Positions 1-15,407 are shown, counted from the first letter of the stretch. The stretch is DNA of 32,000 nt from Methanococcus maripaludis (GCF_002945325.1 NZ_CP026606.1:810001-842000), one strand, 5' to 3'. Translations and numbers: made by a program. The notes: a model not told the origin generated them from the letters alone.

Positions 1-1212
1 ATGTATTGTCTGAGACTCCATTGCTTCTAGAATATATGATAAAACACTTCTTTCAACGGTTAATTCATCAAGACATGCAGTACCGCCGTTTGCTTTTACT
101 AATACTCCTGGTTTTATGACCCAAGTACTGTCTCCAATTTCAGTTTTTTCCTGGACCACACCAGCTGTCAACCCAACTCCTGAAGCAGTTGAAATCGAGC
201 TGTAAACACAACCTGGAACTCCAGCAATGAATCTTAAAATATCACTTTTTCCAGTTCCAGGATCCGTTATTAATAAAATATGGCTGTCTGCTCGTTTTTT
301 TCCTTTTTTAACACCTCTGACCTGCTGTAAGAGAATAGATTGCTTTATTATCTCGTTTCCTTTGATTTGTGGTGCAATTCTTCCCGAAAGAATGTTTAAA
401 ACGTCTTTGTTTTTTGCGAGACTTTCAAACTGTTTAATTTCATTTTCAGTGAATGATACATCCAGTTTTTCGGTTACTGGTTCGCAATTGTATCCTCCGA
501 TTAAAATGTCATGAAGCGGGATTTTCTTATTTTTCTGGTTTTTTATTGGAATTCCCGTGACTTTGATCCGTCCGCAGTAGATTCCGGGCGTGTATTCGAG
601 TAATACACTTATGAATTTTGGAGGATCTTCGGGATCATCCATTAAATCCAACGGCTGCTGAATTTTTAGTTCCTGGTAATCTACATATTTTGATTCTTCA
701 TCCAGCAGCAACATATTTTGAGAACACTTTGGACACTGGGGCCCCATGTGCATTTCAAAAGGCCTTTCAATTGTCACTTTTTTCTTCTGGCCGCATGATG
801 CACAGACATAAACTGCTTCTTTTAGGGCCAACTTGATTTTAGTTGCCATTACAACTATTCCTTCAACTTCAACGAGTTTTCCATAATTTTCCCCCTTAAT
901 GTCCTCGATAGTCATTGGTTTTCCGTTAGAATTTCTATTCAATGATTCTGGAAGATTTTTTACAGTAACGGTGCAGTCTGCATCAGCCATTTTGTATGAA
1001 AAATAAGCATCCGCATAAGCTTCATTTAAGAGTTCCAGTGCTGAATAGGGGTTTTCTTCCAGATAATCTAAAAATTCAAAGAAACCATAATCATGAACGT
1101 TTTTTAAATCAACTACCACTCTTTTGGTTTCAGATATTATATCATCGAGGTGAACTTCCTTAAAATACGGAACTAACCTTGACATTAACTTTGATTTTAT
1201 TTTGTCATCCAA
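1..1212 (-). CDS. mcm: MCM replicative helicase, N-terminal about 404 codons (gene continues past the left window edge)
   Basis: Absent from the ORF track because it is truncated by the window. My own minus-strand translation from TTG at 1212 (G-run RBS at 1221-1228; alternative ATG at 1185) reads MDDKIKSKLMSRLVPYFKE... It contains a CxxC...CxxC zinc finger (CASCGQKK...CPKCS), Walker A ILLITDPGTGKSDILRF, Walker B-like ACLDEL, and the MCM-typical ILEAMESQTIH at the edge. The frame is open for all 1212 nt. Confidence 0.85.
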   Translation of the reverse strand, partial: MDDKIKSKLMSRLVPYFKEVHLDDIISETKRVVVDLKNVHDYGFFEFLDYLEENPYSALELLNEAYADAYFSYKMADADCTVTVKNLPESLNRNSNGKPMTIEDIKGENYGKLVEVEGIVVMATKIKLALKEAVYVCASCGQKKKVTIERPFEMHMGPQCPKCSQNMLLLDEESKYVDYQELKIQQPLDLMDDPEDPPKFISVLLEYTPGIYCGRIKVTGIPIKNQKNKKIPLHDILIGGYNCEPVTEKLDVSFTENEIKQFESLAKNKDVLNILSGRIAPQIKGNEIIKQSILLQQVRGVKKGKKRADSHILLITDPGTGKSDILRFIAGVPGCVYSSISTASGVGLTAGVVQEKTEIGDSTWVIKPGVLVKANGGTACLDELTVERSVLSYILEAMESQTIH

Positions 1213-1224
1213 ATTAAAACCCCC

Positions 1225-1449
1225 TCACTGTTTAACATCTTTTTGAGGTTCTGGACCTTCTGTTTCGACTTTTTTAATGATTCGATCCATCAGTGCTTTT
1301 ACATCGTCGCATGCACTGATAATTCCCGGTCTAAATGCATCTTTGAAATCATCCTGGCTAGTTTCCCATAAATCAGTGTCTACAAAAACGAGTAAAAGTT
1401 TAAAAGTATTTCTTATTTCTTCAGTTTCTAATTTTATCATATTATTCAA
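1225..1449 (-). CDS. hypothetical small acidic protein (74 aa), immediately upstream of mcm in the same operon
   Basis: ORF track. Its stop TGA (1225-1227) lies 12 nt upstream of the mcm start. It overlaps the upstream ORF by 8 nt (operon-like packing). No recognisable motif. Confidence 0.5.
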   Translation of the reverse strand: MNNMIKLETEEIRNTFKLLLVFVDTDLWETSQDDFKDAFRPGIISACDDVKALMDRIIKKVETEGPEPQKDVKQ

Positions 1450-1672
1450 CCTCTTTTAACAATTGTTTAGTTAATTCTTCGTCTTCTTCAATTATGGTTA
1501 TTAAAACGGTCTTGCCGATGTATTCTTTAGGTAGTTTTGGTTCAATATTTGCAGAATTGCCGTGTTCAGCTACTTTTGCAATAAATGTCGGAAGTGCTGA
1601 TCTCGGCTTCCTCCAGGTTTTCTTCTTGACTTCTATTCTGACCACCTTTTGGATTAATTTCTTCATTTTCAA
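1442..1672 (-). CDS. small protein, possibly AbrB/SpoVT-like fold (76 aa)
   Basis: ORF track. The segment AKVAEHGNSANIEPKLPKEYIGKTVLITII resembles the G-x-S...(I/L)PK...GK-V-hydrophobic pattern of archaeal AbrB/SpoVT-type swapped-hairpin proteins. The N-terminal 35 codons overlap the 198-aa ORF, so the true start is uncertain. Confidence 0.4.
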   Translation of the reverse strand: MKMKKLIQKVVRIEVKKKTWRKPRSALPTFIAKVAEHGNSANIEPKLPKEYIGKTVLITIIEEDEELTKQLLKEVE

Positions 1673-2162
1673 GCTTTTTTAAAGCCTTATTCAACAATTC
1701 AATAAGCTGGAAGATTTTTTCCGTGATTTTAGGTCTTAATGATATTTTAACACGTTCAGGAGTATTTTCCCAGTCATCTGTAAACAATAGTTCTAAAATC
1801 CGGTTAAAGTTCTTCAGGTGTCCTTTTCTGCAATTTTCCGAGCTTTCTGGAACGATCGTTCTTTCCAAAAGCCTCGTTTGAAGTTCTTCAATTATCCGGT
1901 CCTTTTCTTCGAGTTCGAGATTTTTGGTTTTAATTAAAGTTTCAATTTCTCGATCTTTTTGCTTTAATTGAAATTTTAGAAGTTCATTTTCTGCAAAAAG
2001 TGTTAAATTTTCGAATACTTTCCGAATCTGGCCCCGGAAGAAATCCGCGTAGTTTTTGTATTCTTCCGAGTGTTCTATGATTTTAAGTAGACATTTTTCG
2101 TCGGATTTTTCCATTTTCATGGTAAATACTTTATATGGCCCCAGTTCTCGATTTCTCGCCAT
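1566..2162 (-). CDS. hypothetical coiled-coil protein (198 aa)
   Basis: ORF track. The central region is heptad-rich (LKFQLKQKDREIETLIKTKNLELEEKDRIIEELQTRLLE). The last 107 nt overlap the next ORF in another frame. Confidence 0.55.
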   Translation of the reverse strand: MARNRELGPYKVFTMKMEKSDEKCLLKIIEHSEEYKNYADFFRGQIRKVFENLTLFAENELLKFQLKQKDREIETLIKTKNLELEEKDRIIEELQTRLLERTIVPESSENCRKGHLKNFNRILELLFTDDWENTPERVKISLRPKITEKIFQLIELLNKALKKLENEEINPKGGQNRSQEENLEEAEISTSDIYCKSS

Positions 2163-2180
2163 AATACCGCTCCATGCGTA

Positions 2181-2393
2181 TTACCCCTCTTTTTTAAATT
2201 TTAACTGATCTTTGAGTTGTAATGCTACTCTTGGAGGGTCTTCTTCAGTTTTTTCTTTTAAAATGTAAACAATGACCTTATGATCCACAAGATCTGAAAA
2301 CGGATTGGGGTGTATTCTTCCACCGCCACCTTGTTTCTTGACTACTGCTTCGTACTTGATCAGAACGTCTTCATCATTCGGATGTTGAATAAT
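2181..2393 (-). CDS. possible small ORF with no canonical start codon (about 70 aa; IIQHPNDEDVLIKYEAVVKKQGGGGRIHPNPFSDLVDHKVIVYILKEKTEEDPPRVALQLKDQLKFKKEG)
   Basis: My own translation. The frame is open from 2399 to the TAA at 2181-2183 and has no ATG/GTG/TTG. A strong GGTGAGGTGA Shine-Dalgarno-like run (2396-2405, minus strand) sits just before ATT ATT at 2393-2388. It is first in the mcm-direction operon. Confidence 0.25.
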   Translation of the reverse strand: MIQHPNDEDVLIKYEAVVKKQGGGGRIHPNPFSDLVDHKVIVYILKEKTEEDPPRVALQLKDQLKFKKEG

Positions 2394-2418
2394 TTCACCT
2401 CACCAGTTGTACACATAT

Positions 2419-2432
2419 CCACAATATTGTGG
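2419..2432. promoter_or_regulatory. perfect 14-bp palindrome CCACAATATTGTGG in the divergent control region
   Basis: Read directly. Lies between the minus-strand mcm operon and the plus-strand wHTH gene. Further palindromes follow: CGCAAATTTGCG (2470-2481) and TGACCAT-N12-ATGGTCA (2532-2557). Confidence 0.35.
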
Positions 2433-2566
2433 ACAATAATAACTTAACTTAATTATTATAAATAATTTACGCAAATTTGCGGATATAACTAAAATAGTTG
2501 TCATTACAAAATATAGTTAAATATACAAAATTGACCATATTAGCAAAATAATGGTCAGAGGATACT

Positions 2567-2869
2567 ATGTTATTAAAACTGATTGCAAAAACACACGCTT
2601 CTGAAATAATAAAATCTCTTGAAAAAAACGATGAATTACACTTTGGGGGCATTTGTAAATACGTTGAAGGCCATAAAAACAGCATTAACCGAATTTTGCA
2701 GGAACTCTACGATGAAGGAATAGTTGAAAAACGGGAAGAAAATTATTCTCCTAAAATATCAAAATCGTATTATAAACTAACAGATTTCGGAAAAGAAGTA
2801 TCGAAAATCATCGACCAGCTCGAAGTTTTGGAGCATAGATATTACGAAGCTAAAAATAAACCTCTTTAA
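2567..2869 (+). CDS. small winged-helix (wHTH) DNA-binding protein, paralogue 1 (100 aa)
   Basis: ORF track, with GAGG RBS before the ATG. The pattern ...ELHFGGICKYVEG.HKNSINRILQELYDEGIVEKREE...YYKLTDFGKEV fits helix-turn-helix + wing (ArsR/PadR/MarR-like). About 40% identical by hand alignment to the 3536-3838 product. Confidence 0.75.
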   Translation: MLLKLIAKTHASEIIKSLEKNDELHFGGICKYVEGHKNSINRILQELYDEGIVEKREENYSPKISKSYYKLTDFGKEVSKIIDQLEVLEHRYYEAKNKPL

Positions 2870-3178
2870 AAAAATATTATTAACATTTATTTTGTAAGTA
2901 CTTACGAAATCATTTTTAGTTTAAAAAAAGTTCAAGGTTTCTTTTTTCTTAACCTGTTTTCATTTATATATTAAACCTAAAATGTAATCAAAAGTCATTA
3001 TCAAAAACAGTCTTTTTTCTTTTTATTTATTTTATTTCGTATATACAGAATTATCTAATAATCTGATTTTGTATATACGAAATCGTTTAAGTAATTCTTG
3101 CAAAAATAGGATTTGGTATTATTTTTTAGCATGTTTTGTATGAATAATTTATTTTGTATATACAAAATAATTGAAAAA
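2852..3178. repeat. noncoding repeat block A (about 327 bp), near-identical to block B at a +996 bp offset
   Basis: Direct comparison: 2911-3178 versus 3907-4174 align without indels, with about 6 substitutions. Contains a TTTATATA box (2963-2970), T-runs, and palindromes of the TTTTGTATATACAAAA family at 2890-2909, 3035-3050, 3067-3082 and 3153-3168. Confidence 0.9.
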
Positions 3179-3228
3179 TTAATAAAAAAATAATCATTTG
3201 AATCAGAATGAGTTGTAATATTATTCTA

Positions 3229-3535
3229 AAAAATAAACTCTTTTAAAAAATAATACTCAATTTTATTTTAGGTAGGCACCTCAAATCCAAATAGATAAAA
3301 AATTATACTTAATCTTTTTTTCATGATTTAAAATTGAATATAAATAAAATCTATATTTGTAGATTAATGTAATGTTTTTAGATTGCCAAAACCAATAATT
3401 AATTGGGCCATTAAATAATTTGAGGTACCACTAATTCCAAGGATTTTAATTAAGGGTACCTTTTATTTATTTTTAAAAATCCAGTAAGTTATTAATCAGT
3501 ATGATTTCATAATTAATTTATATGAAAATGCTTAA
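3229..3535. repeat. noncoding module X1, homologous to X2 (6334-6593)
   Basis: Shared anchors: AAAAATAAAC(C)TCTTT(T)AAA...TTATTTTA, GGGCCAT..A(T/G)ATAATTT...GTACCA.CTAATT. Internal inverted repeat GGCACCTCAAAT (3275-3286) / ATTTGAGGTACC (3418-3429). A TTTCATA-N9-TATGAAA inverted repeat (3504-3526) overlaps the likely promoter of the next gene. Confidence 0.7.
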
Positions 3536-3838
3536 TTGGGCGATAATGTGATTTTAAAAATGATTAATAAAAAGCACGTTAAAGAAATATTATATCTATT
3601 AAATAGTGTTGAGGAACTTTATTTTGCGGAAATATGTAATAATATCCCTGAAGCACACAAAGGAAGTATTAATCGGACGTTGCAGGAATTATATGATTTT
3701 AAAATGGTTTCAAAAAGGGAAGAAGGAACTGCTAAACTTTCAAAAACATTTTATTCGATTACAGATCTTGGAAAGGAATCATTAAAGTTTTACGAACTTG
3801 AAAAAGAAGTGGAAACCAAGTACAATATAACAGAATAA
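3536..3838 (+). CDS. small winged-helix (wHTH) DNA-binding protein, paralogue 2 (100 aa, TTG start)
   Basis: ORF track. Same architecture as paralogue 1 (HKGSINRTLQELYD...SKREEG...FYSITDLGKE). Confidence 0.7.
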   Translation: MGDNVILKMINKKHVKEILYLLNSVEELYFAEICNNIPEAHKGSINRTLQELYDFKMVSKREEGTAKLSKTFYSITDLGKESLKFYELEKEVETKYNITE

Positions 3839-3847
3839 TACTTTATT

Positions 3848-4205
3848 AAAAATAAACCTCTTTAAAGAAATAATACTAATAACTATTTTGTAGAGCTATA
3901 CAAAATCATTTTTAGTTTAAAAAAAGTTCAAGGTTTCTTTTTTCTTAACCTGTTTTCATTTATATATTAAACTTAAAATGTAATCAAAAGTCATTATCAA
4001 AAACAGCCTTTTTTCTTTTTATTTATTTTATTTCGCATATACAGAATTATCTAATAATCTGATTTTGTATATACAAAATCGTTTAAGTAATTCTTGCAAA
4101 AATAGGATTTAGTATTATTTTTTAGCATGTTTTGTATGAATAATTTATTTTGTATATACAGAATAATTGAAAAAAGGATTTTGTATATACTGAATTTTAA
4201 AAAAG
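3848..4205. repeat. noncoding repeat block B (about 358 bp), copy of block A plus one extra palindrome
   Basis: See block A. Palindrome-family sites at 3886-3905, 4031-4046, 4063-4078 (perfect), 4148-4163 and 4179-4194. Confidence 0.9.
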
Positions 4206-4285
4206 TTTAGTTTATTCTGTGGAGTAATTCAAAACTGGATCTGTTGAAAAACGTATTTTTTGAATTGTTGTAGGGAAAAACGAGC

Positions 4286-5947
4286 TTATTTTAATAATTT
4301 ATTTTTTAAAATATCTCTTTTAAAAAACATTAAATTTCTAAAAAGGAGCTGTTTTGCATATGGATCTTTTTCATCACAATTAATATCTGCAGGGAAATAT
4401 AAATCTGATTTTAAAAGCAATGCGTTAATATACGCTTCCAAAATCAATGTTCGAGGATCTTTTAATTCCACTAAAGAATTTTTAGCATCCATTAAATATT
4501 TCAAACCCATATGTTCTAGTCCTAATTTGGAGTAACATTCATAAACATGGCGAAGGGTCTGAATATATGCGTATAACTCACCAGAATTTCGATAATAGGA
4601 TTCTAACTTAAAATTTATGGTCAAAGCATGGCAATAATAACCAATACGGAAAAAGTACTCTGAATAATTTGGTAAAATACAGTATTCTGAATTATTGTTC
4701 ATATTTTTTGCAACAACCAATGCTTTATCCAATATTGGTTTAGCTTCAATATATCTCTTAGTTTCCAAATAGGATGTTGAAATGGTAATGTAAAACGGCA
4801 GTTGAAATGCGTATATATGTTTTAAAACTTCTTTGTCAGTATTTTGACTTTTTAACTCATTGATTAGTAGTTTAATATGATCTAAGGCACCTAAGCAGAT
4901 TTTTTCTACTTGGGTATGCTTTCCAATTTTTAGATTTTTTTGTGCATAAAATTCCAAGGCACAAAGACGTTCTATAATATTTTCAGAAAAAAGTGCTTTT
5001 AAACTGTAATTCTCACTTAAATCCCATTCACCAACATTTCTCAAAAATTGAGAAATAACATAGTTTTTAAGCCTACTTTCAACATTTTTTGACCATATTT
5101 TTATTTTGATTTTCCACTCATTATTTTTGAAACTTAAATCGGTATATCCTCCGATATTCTCGGAATATAATTCCCAAATTGTTTTTACAAATTCATTGGT
5201 ATCCATAAAAACTTCATGAAAATCATAACTCTTTAAAAATTCTTTTTTAGAAACGTCTGATTTAGAATGGTTTACAACGGCTATTTTCTTTTCTAGATTA
5301 CTACATTTTTTAAAAATTGGGTTTATGTCATAAAAATCAGAAAAACTGTAACCCATAAAAATCAAACTATCATCATTGTATAACATGTCTTCCAAGACTT
5401 TTGCACGTATTTCTAAATTATTCTGGTTTGCAACGTTTTTTATCGTGTGTTTTAATGAATCTACGTTAGAAATGCAGCCGTGAATTTTGTAAATTTTCAA
5501 AATATTTTCGTCATTTAAAGAATTTTCCAGATCTTTTTCAGTTCTATATACTTTATAATCCCTATTTTCGACCATTCCTTCATCGATCATGGCTTTTTCT
5601 ATTAGTTCATCAAAATTTGTAGTATATATGGATCCTAGAAAACCCTGTTTTGCTAATTTTGCCATTAAAACATGATTTGAATTTGGAATTCCACAGTCAT
5701 AAACTTTCAAAAGCTCAGCCGATTCATTATTTAAAAATTCCATGTAAACTTCAAACGCTATGTCTTTTTTTAGTATTCTTTCAGCATCTTCTTGATTAAC
5801 CATTTTTAATAGTATCTCTTTGATAAACTCGTTAACTGAAGGAAGGCCTGAATCATAAGAGATGCCCGAACCTACGAAAAAAGAAAGTTGGCCTTTTGAC
5901 ATACTTCTAAAATCAAATTTTTCTAAAATTTCGTTTAAGTTTTCCAT
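4286..5947 (-). CDS. SIR2-family (SIR2_2 / defence-associated sirtuin-like) N-terminal domain fused to a TPR-like helical-repeat C-terminal domain (553 aa)
   Basis: ORF track. Motifs in the order seen in ThsA-type SIR2 domains: LSFFVGSGISYDSGLPS, IYTTNFDELIEKA, KIYKIHGCIS (candidate catalytic His), LIFMGYSFSDFYD. The C-terminal about 270 aa is helical and repeat-like (e.g. EFYAQKNLKIGKH..., YIEAKPILDKALVVAKN..., YECYSKLGLEHMGLKYLMDAKN). Confidence 0.75.
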   Translation of the reverse strand: MENLNEILEKFDFRSMSKGQLSFFVGSGISYDSGLPSVNEFIKEILLKMVNQEDAERILKKDIAFEVYMEFLNNESAELLKVYDCGIPNSNHVLMAKLAKQGFLGSIYTTNFDELIEKAMIDEGMVENRDYKVYRTEKDLENSLNDENILKIYKIHGCISNVDSLKHTIKNVANQNNLEIRAKVLEDMLYNDDSLIFMGYSFSDFYDINPIFKKCSNLEKKIAVVNHSKSDVSKKEFLKSYDFHEVFMDTNEFVKTIWELYSENIGGYTDLSFKNNEWKIKIKIWSKNVESRLKNYVISQFLRNVGEWDLSENYSLKALFSENIIERLCALEFYAQKNLKIGKHTQVEKICLGALDHIKLLINELKSQNTDKEVLKHIYAFQLPFYITISTSYLETKRYIEAKPILDKALVVAKNMNNNSEYCILPNYSEYFFRIGYYCHALTINFKLESYYRNSGELYAYIQTLRHVYECYSKLGLEHMGLKYLMDAKNSLVELKDPRTLILEAYINALLLKSDLYFPADINCDEKDPYAKQLLFRNLMFFKRDILKNKLLK

Positions 5948-5953
5948 AATATC

Positions 5954-6154
5954 TTACAAAATATCCAAAATACGATTTATTCCATTAAAAAGCATATCAA
6001 TTGCACCATCAGGATCATTCGATGCTACTTTTATAAATTTTAAGGTAAATAATGATAAAAAAATCAGAGCAAACCCCATTAATATTCCCAAAATCGGGTG
6101 TAATTCTCCTTTTTTAGACCTAATCAAATTTTTAACTAAATTTAAAAGAATCAA
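5954..6154 (-). CDS. small single-pass membrane protein (66 aa, TTG start), co-operonic with the SIR2-TPR gene
   Basis: ORF track. Hydrophobic segment HPILGILMGFALIFLSLFTL. Its stop lies 6 nt before the SIR2 start codon. Preceded by the GGGGGCGAA leader and an A/T box. The overlapping plus-strand ORF 5862-6170 looks like a low-complexity antisense shadow. Confidence 0.5.
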   Translation of the reverse strand: MILLNLVKNLIRSKKGELHPILGILMGFALIFLSLFTLKFIKVASNDPDGAIDMLFNGINRILDIL

Positions 6155-6225
6155 CCTATTCGCCCCCTAAATTTCGATATAATTATATGGTTGAATTTAA
6201 AATATATTAACTAATCGATTTTGAA
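6155..6225 (-). promoter_or_regulatory. diverged fourth copy of the shared promoter/leader cassette (drives small-TM + SIR2-TPR)
   Basis: On the minus strand it shares TTCAAAATC (distal), TAATTATAT (A/T box) and GGGGGCGAA (leader) with the cassette upstream of the OLD gene, in the same order and with similar spacing. Confidence 0.45.
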
Positions 6226-6246
6226 TTTGAAAAGAAAGGGCGATAA

Positions 6247-6324
6247 ACCTTTTATGAATTAGAATCAGCTTTTGAAGAGTTAAAAGCAGATCAGAAAATA
6301 GTATACCAAATCGTTAAAGAATAA
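6247..6324 (+). pseudogene. 3' remnant of a third wHTH paralogue (…TFYELESAFEELKADQKIVYQIVKE*)
   Basis: My own translation. The frame is open only from 6247 and has no start codon. FYELE...E matches the C-terminus of paralogue 2 (KFYELEKEVE). It is followed by the same AATAATACTTT..AAAAATAAACCTCTTTAAAGAA 3' flank as paralogue 2. Confidence 0.5.
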
Positions 6325-6333
6325 TACTTTTTT

Positions 6334-6593
6334 AAAAATAAACCTCTTTAAAGAATATTACTCAAGATTATTTTATGGACGGTACATGAAACTCCCATTA
6401 ATTAAAAAAATCCATTAAGTTTATTTTTTAATCATATTTTTATTTAAATACTAAACCAGCGGTTTTTTGAAAAAAGTAATCTTATCCACTTAACTATTTA
6501 GAATATTTGGGGCCATATTAGATAATTTCGTGTACCATCTAATTTTAAAAAATCTTATTTTATGTGCCATGAAATAATTTAAAGAAATGGGTA
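6334..6593. repeat. noncoding module X2, homologous to X1
   Basis: Inverted repeat GGTACATGAAAC (6381-6392) / ATTTCGTGTACC (6525-6536), spaced 132 nt versus 131 nt in X1. See findings. Confidence 0.7.
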
Positions 6594-6700
6594 AAAAATA
6601 GGACTTAGTATTATTTTTTAGTATGTTTTGTATGAATAATTTATTTTGTATATACAGAATAATTGAACTGGGGATTTTGTATATACAGAATTTTTGAAAT
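6594..6700. repeat. partial repeat block C (3' 107 bp of block B)
   Basis: AAAAATAGGA.TTAGTATTATTTTTTAG.ATGTTTTGTATGAATAATTTATTTTGTATATACAGAATAATTGAA...GGATTTTGTATATAC.GAATTTT matches 4100-4205. Palindrome sites at 6644-6659 and 6675-6690. Confidence 0.85.
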
Positions 6701-6705
6701 AGAAC

Positions 6706-8463
6706 TTATTTAAGTTGAAAAGAATACATTTGATCGGTTATGATAATAACATCTGGTTCATCTTCCTTTTTTTTGTTCACGCGCATCTCATAAGTCTTTT
6801 TTTGGAATTCATCATATAATTTTAAGAATTTATCGTATTGTTCTGAAGTTAATTGTGTTTTTTTATGGGTTCCTGCAATATTCAAAAATTTGTTTTTTCT
6901 GATTTGATCTAACTCAAAATTTACTCCGTTATGCGGATTTGTTACGTCATTATCCCCTAATTTGTATAATTCAAGCAAATAATTTAAATTCTCTGAAAAA
7001 TTGTCTTTTTCCGAAAATAAATACTCCATTAAGAAATAAATTACACTGTTTTCAACTACCAAATGATCATTAAAATCGAAACCATCACTACCATAGAGTT
7101 CTTTAATTTTTTTAAATAACAAATAAGACGAAAAATTAAAAAAATCGTCAGTGTCGTGTATTTTATTTATAAATAAATCGTAGTTGCATTGGCTAAGTAC
7201 AAACAATACGTTAAGAAAATAATCCTTTCCGAGATCTGAATCAATAATCCCCTTTAATATCTCCTCTATTTCAACAGATAATGCTGATCCAAAAGTTGTT
7301 TCTAAAAATTTTGGAGATTTTAATGCATTTACTGCAATTAATATCATTTCTCGGTAAATGAATAGTAACCTACGTCTTTGAAATTCCTCAAAAATTTGTT
7401 TTTTGGATAAATATACTATAGTCCTATACTTATCAAGAAATTGTCTAACATCGATTCCGTCATTGATACTCCAGTTTATATCTCTTTTTTTGACAATATC
7501 ACTAATTAAGTGCATATTTTTAATTATATCACGAGTATAGTCTTCATTATGGTTGATATTTGGATTTTTTAAAAGGCCATAATAAAAAGTAGCAAAATAA
7601 CAAGGTAACTTTACATAAGTTTGTAAATCATTTGTTTTTGAGTATTCAACATATAATTTACTTTCAAAATCTTCAAATTTTTTATGAGTTTCTTCAAGTA
7701 AATATTTAAAAACCTCCTTATCTCGACTATCTGCAGTTTTTCTGAATAAAAGATCTAAATATTGTAGGGGATATTTTGAAAAATGGTTTTCATTTTTTCC
7801 AAAAAATCCCAATTTAATCTTTGAAAGATATTCTTTGGTATCTTCAAATTTAATTTCATCCAATACATTTTTTACAGTATTTTCGGGTTTCATAAACTTT
7901 ATAATTTCATCGATATAAAAAAATAAAGCAATAAAGTTAGAAACGAGCACCATTAATCCAAAGAATACTATAAAAGAACTTAATAAATTAGTTGAAGGTA
8001 GAAATGCCCCGATAATTGAACTAAACCCTAAAGATAAAATTATTAAAAATAAATAAGCTTTAAAAAAACTTTTATTCATAAATAGGTCTAAAATACGGGT
8101 TGAATAATTATTCGAAGTTGAATTTATTGTTGCAACTGAAAACGCGACAATAAATGCACCCAATATTGATATTCCCGAACTTGCTGTTTTAAAAAGATTT
8201 TCAATATTATTGCTTGAAATATCTGCAGATACAGGCAGATAAAAATAAATTAAAAATGAAATTAAGGAAGATAAACCTAAAATTTTTTTCAGTTTTGGGC
8301 ATTGTTCTTTAATATATTTGATATATGGCTTTATTTTGGGATCAATATTCTCTTTATTGCGCCAATATTTAACAATAAGAAACATTGCGATTAAAAAGAG
8401 CGAATATACTTTAAACATATCCATATAATTCACGAAAGAATTTATCAAACTTAAAAACCCCAT
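6706..8463 (-). CDS. multi-pass membrane protein (about 5 TM in the first 190 aa) with a large helical cytoplasmic C-terminal domain (585 aa); N-terminus possibly DUF2254-like
   Basis: ORF track. Hydrophobic segments by eye. The stretch ATINSTSNNYSTRILDLFMNKSFFKAYLFLIILSLGF resembles the (Q)xxxxxS(P/T)R(I/L)L motif I associate with DUF2254 membrane proteins (unverified). Preceded by promoter cassette copy 1. Confidence 0.6.
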   Translation of the reverse strand: MGFLSLINSFVNYMDMFKVYSLFLIAMFLIVKYWRNKENIDPKIKPYIKYIKEQCPKLKKILGLSSLISFLIYFYLPVSADISSNNIENLFKTASSGISILGAFIVAFSVATINSTSNNYSTRILDLFMNKSFFKAYLFLIILSLGFSSIIGAFLPSTNLLSSFIVFFGLMVLVSNFIALFFYIDEIIKFMKPENTVKNVLDEIKFEDTKEYLSKIKLGFFGKNENHFSKYPLQYLDLLFRKTADSRDKEVFKYLLEETHKKFEDFESKLYVEYSKTNDLQTYVKLPCYFATFYYGLLKNPNINHNEDYTRDIIKNMHLISDIVKKRDINWSINDGIDVRQFLDKYRTIVYLSKKQIFEEFQRRRLLFIYREMILIAVNALKSPKFLETTFGSALSVEIEEILKGIIDSDLGKDYFLNVLFVLSQCNYDLFINKIHDTDDFFNFSSYLLFKKIKELYGSDGFDFNDHLVVENSVIYFLMEYLFSEKDNFSENLNYLLELYKLGDNDVTNPHNGVNFELDQIRKNKFLNIAGTHKKTQLTSEQYDKFLKLYDEFQKKTYEMRVNKKKEDEPDVIIITDQMYSFQLK

Positions 8464-8470
8464 TCACATT

Positions 8471-8530
8471 TAAAATATAATTACATTAAAATAGCCCCAA
8501 CTTAAATATTAAATTTATGATTTTGATTAA
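8471..8530 (-). promoter_or_regulatory. shared promoter/leader cassette, copy 1
   Basis: TAAAATATAATTACATTAAAATAGCCCCAACTTAAATATTAAATTTATGATTTTGATTAAAT. About 95% identical to copy 3. Contains two A/T boxes on the minus strand (TAATTATATTTTA and TTTAATATTTA). Confidence 0.6.
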
Positions 8531-8546
8531 ATAGTGGGGTGGGAAT

Positions 8547-9491
8547 TTGCCTAGCTTTTCACAACGAAACGGCTACAAAGAGCTGAATGAAGACTTATTT
8601 TATGAATGTATGCCTGAAAGTCTTAAAACCAGAATTTGGAATTTTATTCATGAAAATTTTTTAAAATACCAGACTTCGGATTTTTTAAAAGTAGTATGTG
8701 ATGAATTTCTAAAATACGATCTTACTGATGAATGGTATATGGATAATCCGATTACAAATGTCATTAAACCAAAATACCGAAGTTTAAAATGGTTTGAAGT
8801 TTATGACCTTGTTGAATTCTGTTTTGATAATATAAAATATCTCGAAAAAGATAAAAAATTAACATATCACATCCATGAATCCTCAATATGGACACAAAAT
8901 GAAAAATGGGCTTATTATCTAAATAAAGGATTTGTTCAAAAACAAGACTCCAGGGGACTTGCTTATTTAGAATATCCGTTTGAAAAATATCTCAAAGAAA
9001 GATTAAAACGATATTCAGTTCTTTTTAATACATTAATGGAAAAAGAAAGAGCTTCCTATCGACTTATCGAAAATAACATAGTTCCGATAACAAATACGGA
9101 AGAAATAAACGAAATTAAAACTGCTTTAAACCCTCCTGAAAAATATAAATTTGTCGGAGACCACCTAAAAAAGGCTTTAGAACTTTATTCGAACAAAGAA
9201 AAGCCAGATTATGAAAATTCAATAAAAGAATCCATTAGTGCTCTTGAATCCCTAGCTAAAATTAGATTAAATAATGAAAAAGGAACTTTGGGTAGGTTAC
9301 TTCCACAATTGGGATTGCATGAAGACTTCGAACTTGGAATTAAAAAACTTTACAGCTGGACTTCTGATGATAAAGGTGGAATTAGACATGGTAAAAAAGG
9401 AGATACTGGAAGTTATGAAGCTGAAGCCCGATATATGCTTGTTACGTGTTCAACACTGTCAAATTATTTAATTTCGAAGCTTGAAAAATAA
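8547..9491 (+). CDS. AbiJ-like abortive-infection protein (AbiJ N-terminal-domain-4-like + C-terminal HEPN-like domain), 314 aa, TTG start
   Basis: ORF track. N-terminus MPSFSQRNGY...MPESLKTRIWNFIHE matches the FSxRxGY...LRNxLWN signature. The middle and C-terminus (YRLIENNIVPITNTEEINEIKTAL, HLKKALELYSNKEKPDYENSIKESISALESLAKI, LYSWTSDDKGGIRHG, ARYMLVTCSTLSNYL) match the conserved blocks I recall for this family. Confidence 0.6.
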   Translation: MPSFSQRNGYKELNEDLFYECMPESLKTRIWNFIHENFLKYQTSDFLKVVCDEFLKYDLTDEWYMDNPITNVIKPKYRSLKWFEVYDLVEFCFDNIKYLEKDKKLTYHIHESSIWTQNEKWAYYLNKGFVQKQDSRGLAYLEYPFEKYLKERLKRYSVLFNTLMEKERASYRLIENNIVPITNTEEINEIKTALNPPEKYKFVGDHLKKALELYSNKEKPDYENSIKESISALESLAKIRLNNEKGTLGRLLPQLGLHEDFELGIKKLYSWTSDDKGGIRHGKKGDTGSYEAEARYMLVTCSTLSNYLISKLEK

Positions 9492-9494
9492 ATT

Positions 9495-10175
9495 TTAAAC
9501 TATTATTTCTTTTTTATAATAATTATGATAACAAAAAAATGCAGAAACCGCAATTCCGGAAAAGTGAACCATTCCTCCTCCACAATTTGATACTGAAAAA
9601 TCGATCAGAAAAGTTAGAACTGAAAAAAACAATGCAAACATAAAGCTTGACCAAAATCCATTACTTTTTGAAAACTTAGTCTTATTAAATACAAAATTAC
9701 CCATAAAATAATAAGAAATATACATAAATCCATAAACAACTCCTGAAATACCTATTCCGGAATAATTTATCGGTTTTTCATTAATAATCCAGTATGCAGT
9801 GAATGAGATTAATGGAATCAGCCATATGGACATTAATAAAAATAAATATGTTTTAAGATTTAGTTTATATTCTACAATATATCCAAAAATAATCAAATAC
9901 AGCATGTTATATTTTAAATGATCCATATCACGGTGTAAAAAGATTGATGTTATGATTTGCCAGGGTTTTTGAAATAATTCTGAAGGAAAAAAGGCATAAT
10001 TTCTGTAAAACTCGGAATTTTTAATCCACAGGTCTGCACTGTTGTAGTACTGAAGTTCGGGATTTATTTTGATAAAAAATACTGCCATGCAAATAAAAAA
10101 TAATAACATGGTAAAATAAGGGATTTTTAAAAAAAATTTATATTTTTCAAATATGTGCATGGAAAGAACCCCCAT
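9495..10175 (-). CDS. rhomboid-family intramembrane serine protease (226 aa)
   Basis: ORF track. WQIITSIFLHRDMDHLKYNMLYLIIFGYIVE (WxxxT..F.H....H...NM), GISGVVYGF (GxSG catalytic Ser) and VHFSGIAVSAF (catalytic His helix). About 6 hydrophobic helices. Its ATG overlaps the stop of the upstream gene (TAATG at 10173-10177). Confidence 0.85.
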   Translation of the reverse strand: MGVLSMHIFEKYKFFLKIPYFTMLLFFICMAVFFIKINPELQYYNSADLWIKNSEFYRNYAFFPSELFQKPWQIITSIFLHRDMDHLKYNMLYLIIFGYIVEYKLNLKTYLFLLMSIWLIPLISFTAYWIINEKPINYSGIGISGVVYGFMYISYYFMGNFVFNKTKFSKSNGFWSSFMFALFFSVLTFLIDFSVSNCGGGMVHFSGIAVSAFFCYHNYYKKEIIV

Positions 10176-11320
10176 TAAATAAATTGAAGATCTTCAAATT
10201 CTTCTTTTATTTTTTCAGCATATTGCTCTATTTCAGTAAATTCCAATGATAAACTTCCCAATATTGCTTTTTCTTCGTCATAATACCTACCTGCATGTAT
10301 AATTGTCATAAAATATTCTTCAGAATAATCTTCTCCATTAATGTCTTCGTATTTTATGGTTAATTTATACCACGGGTCATTTATTGGATAACTTATGGCC
10401 GATTCTGTGATAATTACTCCCTCATATATCCTTAAAATTTCGTCAGGTAGTGGAATTATTAGATATTTTTTATCATAGGGTGGCAAAACCTCATAATTAC
10501 GCCTAATTTTGGTTTGAACTGATGAACTACTTAAATATCCATTAATATCCGATTCTACCCGTAAATAACCAGAATTATTATCTCCTGGGGTATATTCTAC
10601 GTTTAAATCATTTTTAACTTTAATGCGGTCTGTAGCAGTGTTATAATTTACATCAAATATTAATTTAATATTTTTTGAAAATCCCGTCCCCAGATTATAA
10701 ATTTCGAAATAAGGAATCCGTATATTTCCGCAGATTAAATTATCAGAACTCAGACTAAGTTTATTTTCTCGTTTTTTCCACGTTAACTCATATTTCTTAT
10801 CAGTATTGCCCGGCACACACCTTATTTCAAAATAATTATTTAATGGGGCTAATTTTGGGCGTTGTTGTAATTTTCTCTGTCGTTCCATTTCTTTTCTCTG
10901 ATTAATTGTTTCATAAACCAGATACGCAGTTAGTGTAACCACCCCAATTCCAGAAAACCAGTCAGCAATACTCCCCCAGTACCCCAAATTTAAAAATTGA
11001 GATCCGAAAACGGCCCAAATGAACAATAATGCTCCGGAAGACATTATTAATTGTCCAGCTTCCTTTTGGAAATTTTTTAAGTATTCATTTTGAAACATAA
11101 AATAAATAACAATCCCAAGCATTAACCAAAGTAAATAAAATACCTTTGTGAAGCCATCCAATCCATTCATCCAGGGCATTGATTCAAAGTATGCAAACAA
11201 TACACATATAATAAAAATTAAGAAAAATACGATTAAAACGTAAATTCCGAAAATATCTATTTTTTTGAGTTTTTCGTATAATGACTTAAGTTTAAATTTT
11301 AAATTAGATTTTTTGTCCAA
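10175..11320 (-). CDS. membrane protein: 4 N-terminal TM helices + about 240-aa beta-rich soluble C-terminal domain of unknown family (381 aa, TTG start)
   Basis: ORF track. Hydrophobic segments at about aa 22-45, 57-76, 91-109 and 121-137. Then a basic linker (QRKEMERQRKLQQRPK) and a domain rich in short alternating strands. Preceded by promoter cassette copy 2. Confidence 0.65.
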   Translation of the reverse strand: MDKKSNLKFKLKSLYEKLKKIDIFGIYVLIVFFLIFIICVLFAYFESMPWMNGLDGFTKVFYLLWLMLGIVIYFMFQNEYLKNFQKEAGQLIMSSGALLFIWAVFGSQFLNLGYWGSIADWFSGIGVVTLTAYLVYETINQRKEMERQRKLQQRPKLAPLNNYFEIRCVPGNTDKKYELTWKKRENKLSLSSDNLICGNIRIPYFEIYNLGTGFSKNIKLIFDVNYNTATDRIKVKNDLNVEYTPGDNNSGYLRVESDINGYLSSSSVQTKIRRNYEVLPPYDKKYLIIPLPDEILRIYEGVIITESAISYPINDPWYKLTIKYEDINGEDYSEEYFMTIIHAGRYYDEEKAILGSLSLEFTEIEQYAEKIKEEFEDLQFI

Positions 11321-11337
11321 TAATATCCCGTCCCCTT

Positions 11338-11390
11338 TAAAATATAATTACATTAAAATAGACTCAACATAAATATTAAAGTTATTATTC
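11338..11390 (-). promoter_or_regulatory. shared promoter/leader cassette, copy 2
   Basis: TAAAATATAATTACATTAAAATAGACTCAACATAAATATTAAAGTTATTATTC. About 4 mismatches in 53 bp versus copy 3. Confidence 0.6.
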
Positions 11391-11437
11391 AAAAAATTTA
11401 AAAAAGATAGTAAATACTGATAAATTAAAAATTAACT

Positions 11438-13261
11438 TTATATGTCTAATTTATTGTGTAATTCCTGAATAAAGTTATTATAAACTTCGTATTTTTCCAA
11501 TATTTTCTTTTTGTCATTAATTTCTTTTAGATCTTCAATAACTAGTTCATTTATTTTTTTCTTGTATTCATTAAAATCGTCTGTTGAACCGGATTTCTTC
11601 TCTGTTTTAAACCGTTTTGCATATTCTAAAACTGGCATATCTACAGGTGTTTTAAACCCATCACCCCATATCTCGGATCCGGCATTATCTAAAATATCGG
11701 TTGGAAATAAATCTTCAGTAGTTGCAACATTCTTTTTTAATTTAACTAAATCCAAAATTTCAAAAATATTGTCCATAAATTCGGGATTTTGTTCCTTAAC
11801 ATCTTCAATAACCCGTCTTCCGGCAGTATCTGAATCTAACACTACAAAACCTGGAACTATATCTGTATTAAAAAATTTAACCCATTTTAATACTTCAGGA
11901 GTCCCTCCTGCATCAGTACATCTAACCTCGTTAATAATTTTTTGGTCAAATACCTGTTTTACAAAGGTTTCATAGAGTTTTCTGTCATTGGGGCCCTCAA
12001 ATACAAGGATATTATTGCCCAATATATTTTTTAAAGAAGTTCCTAAGGCTCGGTATATTACTTCTTCTTTTATTGGGAAATTCACGTCGATTTCTTCAAT
12101 AATTGTATTTCCATTTTTTTTAGATACAATAAGGTGATTTTTTAAATCTTTTTTAACCATAAATATGGAATGGGTTGATAAAAATACCACGTTATTTTTG
12201 GAAATATTCAAAAGTTCGTCTCTTAAGTATTCGACGCCACTAGGGTGCAAATGTACTTCCGGTTCATCAATTATTATTACGTTATTTTTCAATGATTCAA
12301 TTTTATTTTGTACTGAAAGATTCAGTAAAATCGACATAAACTGCTTAAAACCATCACTTCTTTCAGTCATTTCCATTTTTCTATATGGTGTGTCTTCATC
12401 ATATGTCAAAACAGTACAGGTCGTACTTTCCAATCTAACTTTTATTTTGATTTTATGTTCAGGCCATAATTGTTGTATGTGTGCCGTAGCTACATCTGAT
12501 AATTTGGATTCATAATTATCCCGAGCACTTTCCTTATTCATTATTTGATCCAATATGGAATTCATATTTTTTTCGTAGCCTGCTAAATAAAAGATATTTT
12601 TCAAAGGTACAGATATATTCGGGTTTTGTTTAAAATTAACCAAATTTATTGGTTGGCCTATCAAATATTTTTCAGAAGATTCCCAAAATATAAATTTAGG
12701 TATTGCTTTTTTTAAATCTTCTAAAACGGCATTTTGAACCAGTTGACTTATTTTTTCTTTTGATATGGATATATAATTTGGAGAATTTTCTGCGGGAACA
12801 TCATTTTTGTTTATTATGTGATTATTACTAGTTGGATTAATCCTATAATCCGATAAATCAGGATACGTAGTCAATAAATTATATGTTACAGCCGTTTCAG
12901 AATTATCCGGCTTTTTTACCAATATTACATTTACCCCAGATATTGAAATAGCACTTGCTAAATTTTTTGGAATAATAGAACTAATTTTAGTTAAAATATT
13001 GATACGATCATCGGAATTAAGCCAAAACTTATAGGTAAACATTATATTTTCATTGTTTTCCTGTGCTTCCATGTTACAATCTTTTACATAATTCAAAGTC
13101 TTTGGTTTATCAAAAACTGAAATCGATTTAAGAATATTACTTTTTCCTGAACCATTTACTCCAAAAAACATTGTATATTTATTATCCGATGTAGGAATTC
13201 TAATTATTTGATCTTTTATGCTTCTAAAATTCTTAATATGTATTTCTTTCAATTCTAACAA
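11438..13261 (-). CDS. OLD-family nuclease (ABC-type ATPase + C-terminal TOPRIM), 607 aa, TTG start
   Basis: ORF track. IKNFRSIK...FFGVNGSGKSNILKSI (Walker A), SDGFKQ (signature-like), VIIIDEPEVHLHPSG (Walker B/D-loop), FLSTHS (H-loop). TOPRIM: NILVFEGPNDRKLYE (Glu) and FVVLDSDTAGRR (DxD). Confidence 0.85.
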   Translation of the reverse strand: MLELKEIHIKNFRSIKDQIIRIPTSDNKYTMFFGVNGSGKSNILKSISVFDKPKTLNYVKDCNMEAQENNENIMFTYKFWLNSDDRINILTKISSIIPKNLASAISISGVNVILVKKPDNSETAVTYNLLTTYPDLSDYRINPTSNNHIINKNDVPAENSPNYISISKEKISQLVQNAVLEDLKKAIPKFIFWESSEKYLIGQPINLVNFKQNPNISVPLKNIFYLAGYEKNMNSILDQIMNKESARDNYESKLSDVATAHIQQLWPEHKIKIKVRLESTTCTVLTYDEDTPYRKMEMTERSDGFKQFMSILLNLSVQNKIESLKNNVIIIDEPEVHLHPSGVEYLRDELLNISKNNVVFLSTHSIFMVKKDLKNHLIVSKKNGNTIIEEIDVNFPIKEEVIYRALGTSLKNILGNNILVFEGPNDRKLYETFVKQVFDQKIINEVRCTDAGGTPEVLKWVKFFNTDIVPGFVVLDSDTAGRRVIEDVKEQNPEFMDNIFEILDLVKLKKNVATTEDLFPTDILDNAGSEIWGDGFKTPVDMPVLEYAKRFKTEKKSGSTDDFNEYKKKINELVIEDLKEINDKKKILEKYEVYNNFIQELHNKLDI

Positions 13262-15119: not shown

Positions 15120-15407
15120 TTATTCAAAACTTTCCAAAATCAAATTTATTAGATATATCTTGTCATGATGATCGAAATCAATAATTATTATAGTATTTCC
15201 GTCTATTTTATAAGTTAAAACAAATGATTTATCGATATGGACTCTTCGAATTCCTTTCATATCGTTTCTAAGTGGTTTATAATGGTTAGGGTTTTCCATT
15301 ATTTCTTTAATCTTTTTATTTATGATTTCAAGCTGTTTTTTATTTTTCTTCTGAAGTTTTTTAAATGCCTTATAAGCGTCTTCTGAAATCTCAATATTAT
15401 AAGTCAT
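15120..15407 (-). CDS. relE: RelE/ParE-superfamily type II toxin (95 aa)
   Basis: ORF track. Size and the pattern ...KQLEIINKKIKEIMENPNHYKPLRNDMKGIRRVHIDKSFVLTYKIDGNTIIIIDFDHHDKIY are typical of RelE-like toxins. 11-nt overlap with the upstream antitoxin gene. Confidence 0.75.
   Translation of the reverse strand: MTYNIEISEDAYKAFKKLQKKNKKQLEIINKKIKEIMENPNHYKPLRNDMKGIRRVHIDKSFVLTYKIDGNTIIIIDFDHHDKIYLINLILESFE

Follow-up and report, generated by a model that had tools for sequence, protein, structure and literature searches.

The palindromic sites in this stretch of Methanococcus maripaludis DNA belong to a conserved, probably cis-acting, non-coding module of about 330 bp, hereafter modA, carried by an MCM element integrated in tRNA-Leu. 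The sites, their phasing, their conservation, the fixed place of the module after the last winged helix-turn-helix (wHTH) gene, and the synteny were observed directly. From these features we infer that the wHTH proteins bind the sites and that the resulting complex acts in replication. Tentatively, modA is best read as a cluster of sites for dimers of the adjacent wHTH proteins, serving as the origin or origin-control region of the element.

Palindromic sites and architecture of modA

Strict matches to TTTYGYATATACDRAA were found at nine sites of the window, i.e. the whole stretch of 32,000 nucleotides analysed (Table 1). They correspond to 12 strand matches, against a chance expectation of 0.01 in dinucleotide-preserving shuffles, none of which reached 12. 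Two further sites are 20-bp variants, in which the half-sites TTTTGTA/TACRAAA are retained around a centre of 6 bp, versus 2 bp in the 16-mers. All eleven sites listed in the initial annotation were located in this way, the two variants exactly as written and one perfect palindrome displaced by 1 bp (3152-3167, not 3153-3168). No convincing further site was detected elsewhere in the 32 kb by a search tolerating up to three mismatches. The two perfect palindromes, P3 of copy 1 and P2 of copy 2, extend to 22 bp and 20 bp, respectively, and are the longest in the window. The core GTATATAC is unchanged in all strict sites but one.

The modA unit comprises the 20-bp variant P0 and four 16-mers, P1 to P4. 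The centres of P1-P4 are spaced by 32, 85 and 31 bp, about 3, 8 and 3 helical turns, so that all four face the same side of the helix. P0-P2 are enclosed by a 25-bp inverted repeat. modA contains no ORF of more than 36 codons, and an Rfam search gave no match. Its nearest-neighbour duplex stability is ordinary compared with intergenic DNA of this genome, with no distinct DNA-unwinding element; the 40-mers of lowest stability in the window fall outside it.

The window contains 2.4 copies of modA because of rearrangements in a tandem array of wHTH genes. Copies 1 and 2 are 94% identical, and the partial third copy adjoins the 3' end of a DUF2254 gene, as in minimal elements. Copy 1 lacks P4 because of its junction with the remnant of an a-type wHTH gene at ATTGAAAAA. 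The sites first described as an array of at least eleven are real but not independent: they are this numerous because the wHTH-modA unit was duplicated, not because function requires a long array.

Table 1. Position of the features discussed, in window coordinates.
Feature	Position	Strand	Description
mcm operon	1-2162	-	198-aa coiled-coil protein, 76-aa ORF, 74-aa ORF, MCM N-terminal part
MCM N-terminal part	1-1185	-	runs off the left end of the window
74-aa ORF	1225-1449	-	
76-aa ORF	1442-1672	-	tentatively DUF2080-like; matched in no family search
198-aa coiled-coil protein gene	1566-2162	-	models as coiled coil, low confidence
Divergent promoter region, mcm operon/wHTH1	2163-2566		own, different perfect palindromes TCCACAATATTGTGGA (2418-2433) and CGCAAATTTGCG (2470-2481)
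wHTH1, d-type, 100 aa	2567-2869	+	HxlR/PadR-like winged helix (Pfam, AF2 model, PDB fold matches); candidate P1-P4 binder
modA copy 1	2851-3170	+	D3 box, P0, TATA, T-rich tract, P1, P2, half-site, P3; P4 absent (direct-repeat family D1/D2, alignment with five other variants)
P0, copy 1	2890-2909		20-bp variant TTTTGTAAGTACTTACGAAA; 7-bp arms, 6-bp centre; 21 bp past wHTH1 stop codon
Consensus TATA, copy 1	2960-2967		TTTATATA
T-rich tract, copy 1	3010-3034		
P1, copy 1	3035-3050		TTTCGTATATACAGAA; imperfect outer site
P2, copy 1	3067-3082		TTTTGTATATACGAAA
Extra conserved half-site, copy 1	3134-3141		TTTTGTAT
P3, copy 1	3152-3167		TTTTGTATATACAAAA; perfect, palindrome spans 3149-3170
Last codons of a-type wHTH gene	3172-3192	+	EKLIKK-stop; fused to copy 1 right after P3 at common sequence ATTGAAAAA
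wHTH2, c-type, 92 aa	3560-3838	+	from ATG at 3560; alternative TTG start at 3536
modA copy 2	3847-4194	+	complete: P0, TATA (3956-3963), T-tract, P1-P4 (direct-repeat family, strain alignment)
P0, copy 2	3886-3905		variant TTTTGTAGAGCTATACAAAA
P1, copy 2	4031-4046		TTTCGCATATACAGAA
P2, copy 2	4063-4078		TTTTGTATATACAAAA; perfect
P3, copy 2	4148-4163		TTTTGTATATACAGAA
P4, copy 2	4179-4194		TTTTGTATATACTGAA; between-strain similarity stops a few bases beyond
Third wHTH (b-type), 3' remnant	6246-6323	+	FYELESAFEELKADQKIVYQIVKE-stop, then D3 box; matches C-terminus of L085 105-aa protein
modA copy 3, partial	6572-6699	+	P2-P3 spacer, half-site, P3, P4
P3, copy 3	6644-6659		
P4, copy 3	6675-6690		
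tRNA-Leu(UAA)	18694-18779	-	integration target

The host element

The element is ordered as integrase, DUF2540, MCM, divergent wHTH, modA and variable defence cargo. Its size was estimated at about 21 kb because a copy of the tRNA-Leu 3' half sits beside the integrase, beyond the left edge of the window. DUF2540 and the tyrosine integrase are also located there, past MCM; L074 carries MCM, DUF2540, the integrase and the 3'-half copy, which matches window positions 18721-18750. The GC content of the island is below that of its flanks. The element has a tyrosine integrase, a duplicated tRNA attachment site and its own MCM, as do integrated MCM elements of Methanococcales, and the first two bear out the initial description of it as plasmid-like. 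The mcm operon previously placed next to the sites is indeed there, on the minus strand; it starts about 0.7 kb from modA copy 1 and this linkage is kept in all variants.

The small wHTH proteins

Two wHTH genes of about 100 codons had also been reported beside the sites, and wHTH1 and wHTH2 do adjoin the modA copies. wHTH1 is 97% identical to a protein of M. maripaludis C5. Its AF2 model (pLDDT 92) matched dimeric HxlR, YodB, QsrR, PadR and MarR regulators in the PDB; wHTH repressors of the HxlR/DUF24, PadR and MarR types (for example YodB, QsrR and PadR), the best fold matches, are dimers with a C-terminal helix. wHTH2 is 46% identical to wHTH1, but the putative recognition helix, HK(N/G)SINR(I/T)LQELYD, is almost the same in both. 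Regulators of the HxlR/PadR/MarR type bind palindromes of 16-20 bp (PMC6798810), the same size as P1-P4, and the 16-bp sites are thus of a size suited to the predicted wHTH dimer. However, operators of these regulators overlap the regulated promoter or their own and usually number one or two, whereas the four to five sites of modA follow the gene and in most cases are flanked by convergent genes.

Conservation of modA and comparison with distant elements

In every fetched related element that covers the region past the last wHTH gene, modA is present once, directly after that gene. The variant set comprised six distinct sequences, four from other strains and the two window copies. These are about 95% identical, while the upstream wHTH alternates between paralogs of 46% identity and the downstream cargo is entirely different. 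Five of the six arrangements have modA between convergent 3' gene ends, which is no promoter position; in L085/L086 a 175-aa gene in the same orientation follows about 95 bp after it. All matches with two mismatches or fewer in 339 kb of (redundant) M. maripaludis-related DNA fell within copies of modA.

The modA family is confined to M. maripaludis. Three further elements of M. maripaludis have related wHTH genes but no downstream array; one of them carries palindromes in the divergent promoter instead. In the variant alignment, conservation is uniform over the whole module and not concentrated in the sites, which could result from recent spread or gene conversion rather than from selection on binding.

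The backbone (integrase, DUF2540, MCM or Rep, DUF2080, divergent wHTH) recurs in three distant elements, which carry different dense repeat arrays at the position of modA. In those of Methanocaldococcus FS406-22 and sp. 28A (L091, L092), opposed sets of TTGCAAC repeats flank about 90-100 bp of almost pure A/T, which looks like an origin. These repeats could be bound by the wHTH domain of the Rep protein itself rather than by a small wHTH. An MCM element from IMG/VR has 64-nt inverted arms and three 19-nt repeats at this position.

modA as a possible origin or origin-control region

The origin reading is supported because the motif exceeds chance expectation by a wide margin and occurs only in modA in the DNA searched, because the c- and d-type paralogs have nearly the same putative recognition helix, and because the distant elements place other repeat arrays at the same spot. 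In the proposed mechanism, P1-P4 would be occupied by dimers of the HxlR/PadR-like wHTH proteins (types c and d) whose genes directly precede modA. Binding would start at the inner pair of perfect sites and extend cooperatively to the imperfect outer pair, giving a nucleoprotein complex of four dimers. Once the element is excised, such a complex may mark its origin or origin-control region, and may recruit the element's own MCM or regulate its loading, by analogy with a dimeric site-specific protein that recruits a hexameric helicase. At the papillomavirus E2/E1 origin and at Sulfolobus WhiP-oriC3, a site-specific protein other than Orc marks the origin and helps load such a helicase; the likeness to wHTH-modA is one of mechanism only. 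WhiP is an archaeal precedent for a winged-helix initiator outside the Orc1/Cdc6 family (PMC5333045).

In archaeal integrative plasmids, putative repeat-rich origins usually adjoin a Rep or MCM gene (PMC6972569). The pT26-2 family and other MCM elements of Thermococcales and Methanococcales resemble the present element in having a non-coding repeat-rich region near a replication gene within a tRNA-integrating element; as with modA, the sequence of these origins is not conserved between lineages and they are predicted in silico only (PMC6972569). Nevertheless, none of the pT26-2 core genes is seen in the window, the target is tRNA-Leu, no AT-rich unwinding element stands out in modA, and the region is a set of four phased palindromes that immediately follow a wHTH gene, instead of being defined by GC skew or dot plot.

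Linkage to replication genes is as expected of an iteron origin. However, modA has four palindromes per module at 32/85/31-bp spacing, not tandem direct repeats, and no unwinding element, unlike L091/L092 with their A/T stretch. No initiator, including of the Rep type, was identified in the element, where the 198-aa operon protein gave only a low-confidence coiled-coil model. The initial proposal of a plasmid-like origin survives as the best single guess, but only because the other readings are weaker and because related elements have origin-like arrays in the syntenic place; its iterons do not, the sites being palindromes rather than direct repeats. An archaeal Orc1/Cdc6-ORB origin is not supported, as no Orc1/Cdc6 domain was found among the scanned ORFs and modA has no unwinding element.

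Alternative readings

An operator array, also proposed initially, or TATA-occlusion array is the main competitor, although a less likely one. Here wHTH dimers would compete with TBP and switch cryptic bidirectional promoters on or off. Each palindrome carries TGTATATA on both strands, which differs at a single position from the methanococcal TATA consensus TWTATATA; the centre of that element is placed 26/27 bp before the start site (PMC5512572). These TATA-like cores make cryptic promoters possible. Transcription from P3/P4 would run rightwards into the convergent cargo gene, producing RNA antisense to DUF2254 or SIR2, and that from P1 would run leftwards into the wHTH gene. The wHTH would then govern how potentially toxic defence cargo is expressed, or shield the backbone from that cargo. 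The documented TATA consensus and position, the near-invariant core of the sites, and the co-directional gene in L085/L086 favor this scheme. Moreover, HxlR, PadR and MarR relatives, which the fold matches point to, are typically repressors acting on palindromes (PMC6798810), and other wHTH paralogs of the array adjoin their own different palindromes (GGTACC boxes, B segment), fitting a regulatory circuit. On the other hand, the TATA-like cores are not preceded by a purine-rich BRE, the flank being TTT on both strands, and in five of six arrangements the sites have no gene to drive. No P-site is present in the divergent promoter region (2163-2566), which includes the wHTH1 promoter, and this argues against simple autoregulation. 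Finally, four phased sites across 160 bp exceed the needs of a simple operator.

That modA has no dedicated function, being recently spread or gene-converted 3' flanking DNA, possibly a MITE-like remnant with incidental palindromes, appears improbable. Its uniform conservation without focus on the palindromes, its confinement to M. maripaludis and the inverted repeat around P0-P2 would fit. However, the module has four members of a single 16-mer family in helical phase, the perfect ones being the inner two, modA is kept in every variant while genes on both sides swap, and distant elements have analogous repeat arrays at the corresponding place.

Somewhat less probable still is a recombination site or hotspot marking the junction of cargo cassette exchange, with P0 as a tyrosine-recombinase core (7-bp arms, variable 6-bp centre) and P1-P4 as accessory sites, as in plasmid multimer-resolution sites. 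Between-strain similarity does stop within a few bases of P4, with different cargo in every strain; the wHTH-modA unit was duplicated and shuffled in the window, and the P0 geometry is recombinase-like, with a centre that varies (AGTACT vs GAGCTA). But the sole resolvable junction (3170-3192) was joined through microhomology at ATTGAAAAA, which lies in none of the palindromes, a DUF2254 3'-end remnant in L001 points to ordinary deletions, the integrase att site in tRNA-Leu is unrelated to the P-sites, and the 2-bp centre of P1-P4 is unfit for strand exchange.

Phased repeat clusters are a typical feature of centromeres. The initial suggestion of a centromere-like site, at which a small wHTH protein would segregate the excised plasmid form as in the AspA-ParB-ParA system of Sulfolobus plasmid pNOB8, is nonetheless the weakest: AspA, too, is a small wHTH dimer from an archaeal plasmid, has a palindromic site and shows a similar fold (4rs8, TM 0.70/0.82, 24% identity, E 3.5e-4), but it ranks only 29th, HxlR/PadR/MarR regulators matching equally well, no ParA- or ParB-like gene was found among the large ORFs of the element, the sites follow the wHTH genes instead of preceding a par operon, and an integrated element needs no partition.

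Palindromic sites belong to copies of one non-coding module

The initial annotation described an array of at least 11 copies of a 16-bp palindrome in this region. Every site that it listed was found in the sequence, with one start corrected from 3153 to 3152. The degenerate pattern TTTYGYATATACDRAA matches nine window positions, compared to a chance expectation of 0.01 matches in dinucleotide-preserving shuffles. Two 20-bp variants keep the arms TTTTGTA/TACRAAA around a centre of 6 bp instead of 2 bp. However, the sites are not independent, because all of them sit in copies of a single segment of about 330 bp, here called modA. Thus the array exists, but its multiplicity is inflated by duplication of the module. 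Two copies of modA are 94% identical and a third is partial. The longest perfect palindromes of the window are the extended sites at 3152 (22 bp) and 4063 (20 bp). Perfect palindromes of at least 12 bp showed no general enrichment in the window (24 versus about 18 in shuffles). Allowing up to 3 mismatches, no credible further site was detected in the 32 kb and, in 339 kb of (redundant) related DNA, all matches with at most 2 mismatches fall inside modA.

A complete modA begins at the stop codon of a winged-helix (wHTH) gene, followed by a conserved D3 box (AAAAATAAACCTCTTTAAA), the 20-bp variant palindrome P0, an exact methanococcal TATA consensus (TTTATATA) and a 25-nt T-rich tract. Then come the 16-bp palindromes P1 and P2, separated by a 16-nt gap, a 69-nt spacer with one additional half-site, and P3 and P4, separated by a 15-nt gap. 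The symmetry of P2 and P3 is perfect or close to it; P1 and P4 are imperfect in every case, ending in ...ATAC(A/G/T)GAA. The centre-to-centre distances from P1 to P4 are 32, 85 (84 in some strains) and 31 bp, or approximately 3, 8 and 3 helical turns, and P1-P4 are therefore expected on one face of the helix. A selected hairpin or cruciform at P1/P2 was considered and rejected, C:G complementarity being present in two variants only.

No ORF longer than 36 codons was found in modA, and Rfam returned no match to it, either at gathering thresholds or up to E = 1. When modA was searched for an unwinding element, its predicted duplex stability was unremarkable, and no stretch of notably low stability stood out. 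The module lies between convergent 3' gene ends in five of six arrangements, and is therefore not an ordinary promoter region.

Two further repeats were observed in and around modA. A 25-bp inverted repeat, 84% complementary, brackets P0-P2; this could be chance in AT-rich DNA or the relic of a small inverted-repeat element. The D3 box (about 21 bp, AAAAATAAACCTCTTTAAAGA) sits 3' of the stop codon of every wHTH paralog, regardless of type, and may act as a common 3' signal or mark a recombination joint.

Coordinates of the features discussed, in window numbering.
Feature	Position	Strand or remark
Operon with the MCM gene	1-2162	-
Small ORF	1442-1672	-
198-aa protein gene	1566-2162	-
wHTH1 promoter region	2163-2566	
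Perfect palindromes outside the P family	2418-2433; 2470-2481	TCCACAATATTGTGGA; CGCAAATTTGCG
wHTH1 (d-type)	2567-2869	+
modA, first copy	2851-3170	lacks P4
modA, second copy	3847-4194	complete
modA, third copy	6572-6699	partial
P0 variants (start)	2890; 3886	20 bp
P-sites, first copy (start)	3035; 3067; 3152	
P-sites, second copy (start)	4031; 4063; 4148; 4179	
P-sites, third copy (start)	6644; 6675	
D3 boxes	2852-2872; 3229-3249; 3848-3868; 6334-6354	
Inverted repeat arms	3865-3889; 4099-4123	25 bp
Last codons of a-type gene	3172-3192	microhomology junction
B segments	3205-3500; 6321-6590	
wHTH2 (c-type)	3560-3838	+
Window cargo	4286-13261	
66-aa membrane-protein gene	5954-6154	-
66-aa gene with upstream region	5950-6225	
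b-type gene remnant	6246-6323	3' end
Toxin-antitoxin pair	15120-15627	
tRNA-Leu(UAA), intact	18694-18779	

The module in an integrated element with exchangeable cargo

The operon at the left edge consists of the gene for a 198-aa coiled-coil protein, two small ORFs and an MCM gene that continues beyond the window. A contig with an identical 198-aa protein extends into the MCM (665 aa), DUF2540 and a tyrosine integrase, and its end is a copy of the tRNA-Leu 3' half. The integrase and the tRNA-Leu duplication therefore indicate that the window spans most of an integrated element of about 21 kb. The GC content of the element is 22-31%, versus 32-40% outside. An identical flanking Dph2 gene and named homologs indicate Methanococcus maripaludis.

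Defence cargo fills the interval from modA to a conserved gene pair (125 and 137 aa). Here it comprises a SIR2-TPR protein with a small membrane protein, a DUF2254 membrane protein and an AbiJ-like protein matching PDC-S32 (E 2e-76), with a rhomboid, a 381-aa protein and an OLD-family nuclease as further cargo. Other strains and read sets (L001, L064, L066, L070, L075 and L085 were compared) share the backbone, but their cargo is wholly different: FRG-domain genes, a type I/IIG restriction system, DUF6414/SEC-C genes or, in strain C5, only DUF2254 and Mrr. The interval from modA to the 125/137-aa genes is a hypervariable cargo hotspot.

A single modA directly follows the last wHTH gene in each relative that extends past that gene. 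Six distinct modA sequences, four from other strains plus the two window copies, are about 95% identical from D3 through P4, and similarity is lost a few bases beyond P4. The gene 5' of modA is either d-type (wHTH1) or c-type (wHTH2); the two types are only 46% identical but share a putative recognition helix of nearly the same sequence, HK(N/G)SINR(I/T)LQELYD. A correspondence between P0 type and wHTH type was rejected, the d-type gene of L085 having a GAGCTA-form P0 behind it.

Some strains carry four tandem paralogs in the order a-b-c-d, then modA. The window is a rearranged form of this array. The d-type gene is followed by modA without P4, and a microhomology junction (ATTGAAAAA) connects it to the final codons of an a-type gene. 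After the B segment that follows a-type genes come the c-type gene, a complete modA and the SIR2 cassette, then the 3' remnant of a b-type gene and, finally, a diverged B segment with P3 and P4 facing the 3' end of the DUF2254 gene. P4 also faces the DUF2254 3' end in the minimal form of C5.

The B segments (also at 7270-7570 in L085) were observed as a second conserved non-coding stretch, 3' of a/b-type wHTH genes and 5' of wHTH2. They contain GGTACC, GGCACC and GGNCCA boxes, for instance AGGTACCACTAATT-N11-AATTAAGGGTACCT, and may be a separate set of binding sites for other wHTH paralogs.

Candidate binding protein

The wHTH1 structure was modelled with confidence (pLDDT 92) and resembles dimeric regulators of the HxlR/DUF24, YodB, QsrR, PadR and MarR types. 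AspA of pNOB8 is also among the fold matches, at rank 29 with a similar score. HxlR/PadR/MarR-class proteins bind 16-20-bp palindromes (PMC6798810). We infer that the c/d-type wHTH proteins are the best candidate binders of the P-sites, because they are encoded next to modA, which always follows the last c/d gene, and have the recognition helix in common. PHROGs returned generic regulator families only, and a scan for sigma-70 promoters and terminators was uninformative, the host being an archaeon. The 198-aa operon protein was considered as an RHH-type binder and rejected, since it was modelled as a low-confidence coiled coil.

No P-site was found in the promoter region of wHTH1. TACAAAA half-sites in this promoter were considered as autoregulatory and rejected, as there are none upstream of the c-type gene of L064. 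Between the divergently transcribed mcm operon and wHTH1, the promoter region holds two perfect palindromes unrelated to the P family; both are also conserved in strain C5, and they are candidate operators of some other protein.

Repeat arrays in distant relatives

Homologs of the wHTH proteins are restricted to Methanococcales and are, without exception, divergent from an operon encoding DUF2080, then MCM or another Rep, DUF2540 and integrase. In three distant elements with this backbone, a dense repeat array of another kind follows the wHTH gene(s), at the position equivalent to modA (L091 8330-8771; L092 6703-7430; L096 4190-4750). In Methanocaldococcus FS406-22, about 90 bp of almost pure A/T separates four TTTGCAAC boxes from seven GTTGCA boxes at 10-bp phase. 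In Methanocaldococcus sp. 28A, about 100 bp of A/T lies between five GTTGCA boxes and five TGCAAC boxes. An MCM element from IMG/VR carries 64-nt inverted arms 254 bp apart, plus three 19-nt repeats. The FS406-22 and 28A arrays have the classic appearance of replication origins and are strong origin candidates, because opposed TTGCAAC sets flank about 90-100 bp of nearly pure A/T.

In species-representative genomes and viral contigs, the pair pattern TTTTGTATATAC-N10-40-TTTTGTATATAC gave scattered single matches in unrelated bacteria and none in Methanococcus. A 23-mer modA probe had one chance match in metagenomes and viral contigs, and neither blastn with modA nor tblastn with wHTH1 detected relatives among plasmids and phages. 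ModA has no sequence relative in the plasmid, phage, viral-contig and metagenome collections searched, or in the species-representative genomes covered by the pair pattern. Clusters of repeats bound by proteins beside replication genes of mobile elements are well known in kind; modA is a new, narrowly distributed case, unusual in having four phased palindromes 3' of a wHTH gene and no unwinding element.

Possible functions of modA

The function of modA is deduced entirely indirectly, and the interpretation in the initial annotation (origin, centromere or operator array) is partly supported. The reading preferred here, tentatively, is that modA may serve as the origin of the excised element or control that origin, with wHTH dimers marking it for the element's MCM; this reading follows from synteny with the distant arrays and from elimination. 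A further-reaching reading, which is rather unlikely, is an Orc-independent origin at which small wHTH dimers, bound to the four phased palindromes, would themselves load this MCM, forming a minimal set of initiator, helicase and origin. To our knowledge, chromosomal origin recognition in Methanococcales is still obscure. The orc genes of this order are very divergent, and several of its mcm copies derive from elements (PMC5333045). A precedent for non-Orc origin recognition is WhiP, a winged-helix initiator at Sulfolobus oriC3 (PMC5333045). Repeat-rich origins predicted in archaeal integrative plasmids are usually found next to the replication gene, and their sequence is not conserved (PMC6972569). 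Although the origin proposal is plausible by synteny and elimination, modA has no unwinding element and its sites are palindromes rather than direct iterons. The uniform conservation of modA, which may simply stem from recent spread, also argues against an origin, as does the lack of a downstream array in three further M. maripaludis elements.

The strongest rival, possible but on the unlikely side, is an operator or TATA-occlusion array, where wHTH binding could gate cryptic promoters, including antisense transcription into the convergent cargo gene. Every palindrome holds TGTATATA on both strands, one mismatch off the methanococcal TATA consensus TWTATATA (PMC5512572), but a purine-rich BRE is absent. 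An incidental or selfish repeat is improbable, fitting poorly with the phasing and constant position of the sites. A recombination hotspot, to which the cargo boundary at P4 and the geometry of P0 might point, is still less probable, as the sole resolvable junction is a microhomology join outside any palindrome. The centromere also proposed is the least likely, its partner genes being absent: neither ParA nor ParB was found among the large ORFs of the element.

M. maripaludis is a genetically tractable methanogen. If modA is an origin, the wHTH protein, four palindromes and element MCM would constitute a compact, testable replication system in this species, showing recruitment of an MCM helicase without canonical Orc1/Cdc6. 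The M. maripaludis shuttle vector derives from pURB500 (PMC3462420). If modA is an operator array, it would exemplify a mobile-element regulator at the edge of a hypervariable defence-gene hotspot. Either reading defines the backbone of an element family: integrase, DUF2540, MCM/Rep, DUF2080, divergent wHTH array, repeat module and cargo.

Additional features of the element

The 198-aa protein gene overlaps the next small ORF by about 107 nt. Its C5 homolog has 174 aa and is 97% identical; the C-terminal extension may have arisen by recent frameshift or readthrough. Past the defence cargo, but still inside the element, lie genes for a ParE/RelE-type toxin (95 aa) and an overlapping RHH-like antitoxin (76 aa), and the pair is also present in the related islands L064 and L085. 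Finally, the 66-aa membrane-protein gene and its upstream region are about 90% identical to L001 2590-2865. In L001 they precede a 190-aa gene, in place of the SIR2-TPR gene of the window; the small gene and its promoter region together resemble a portable leader that is combined with interchangeable effectors.
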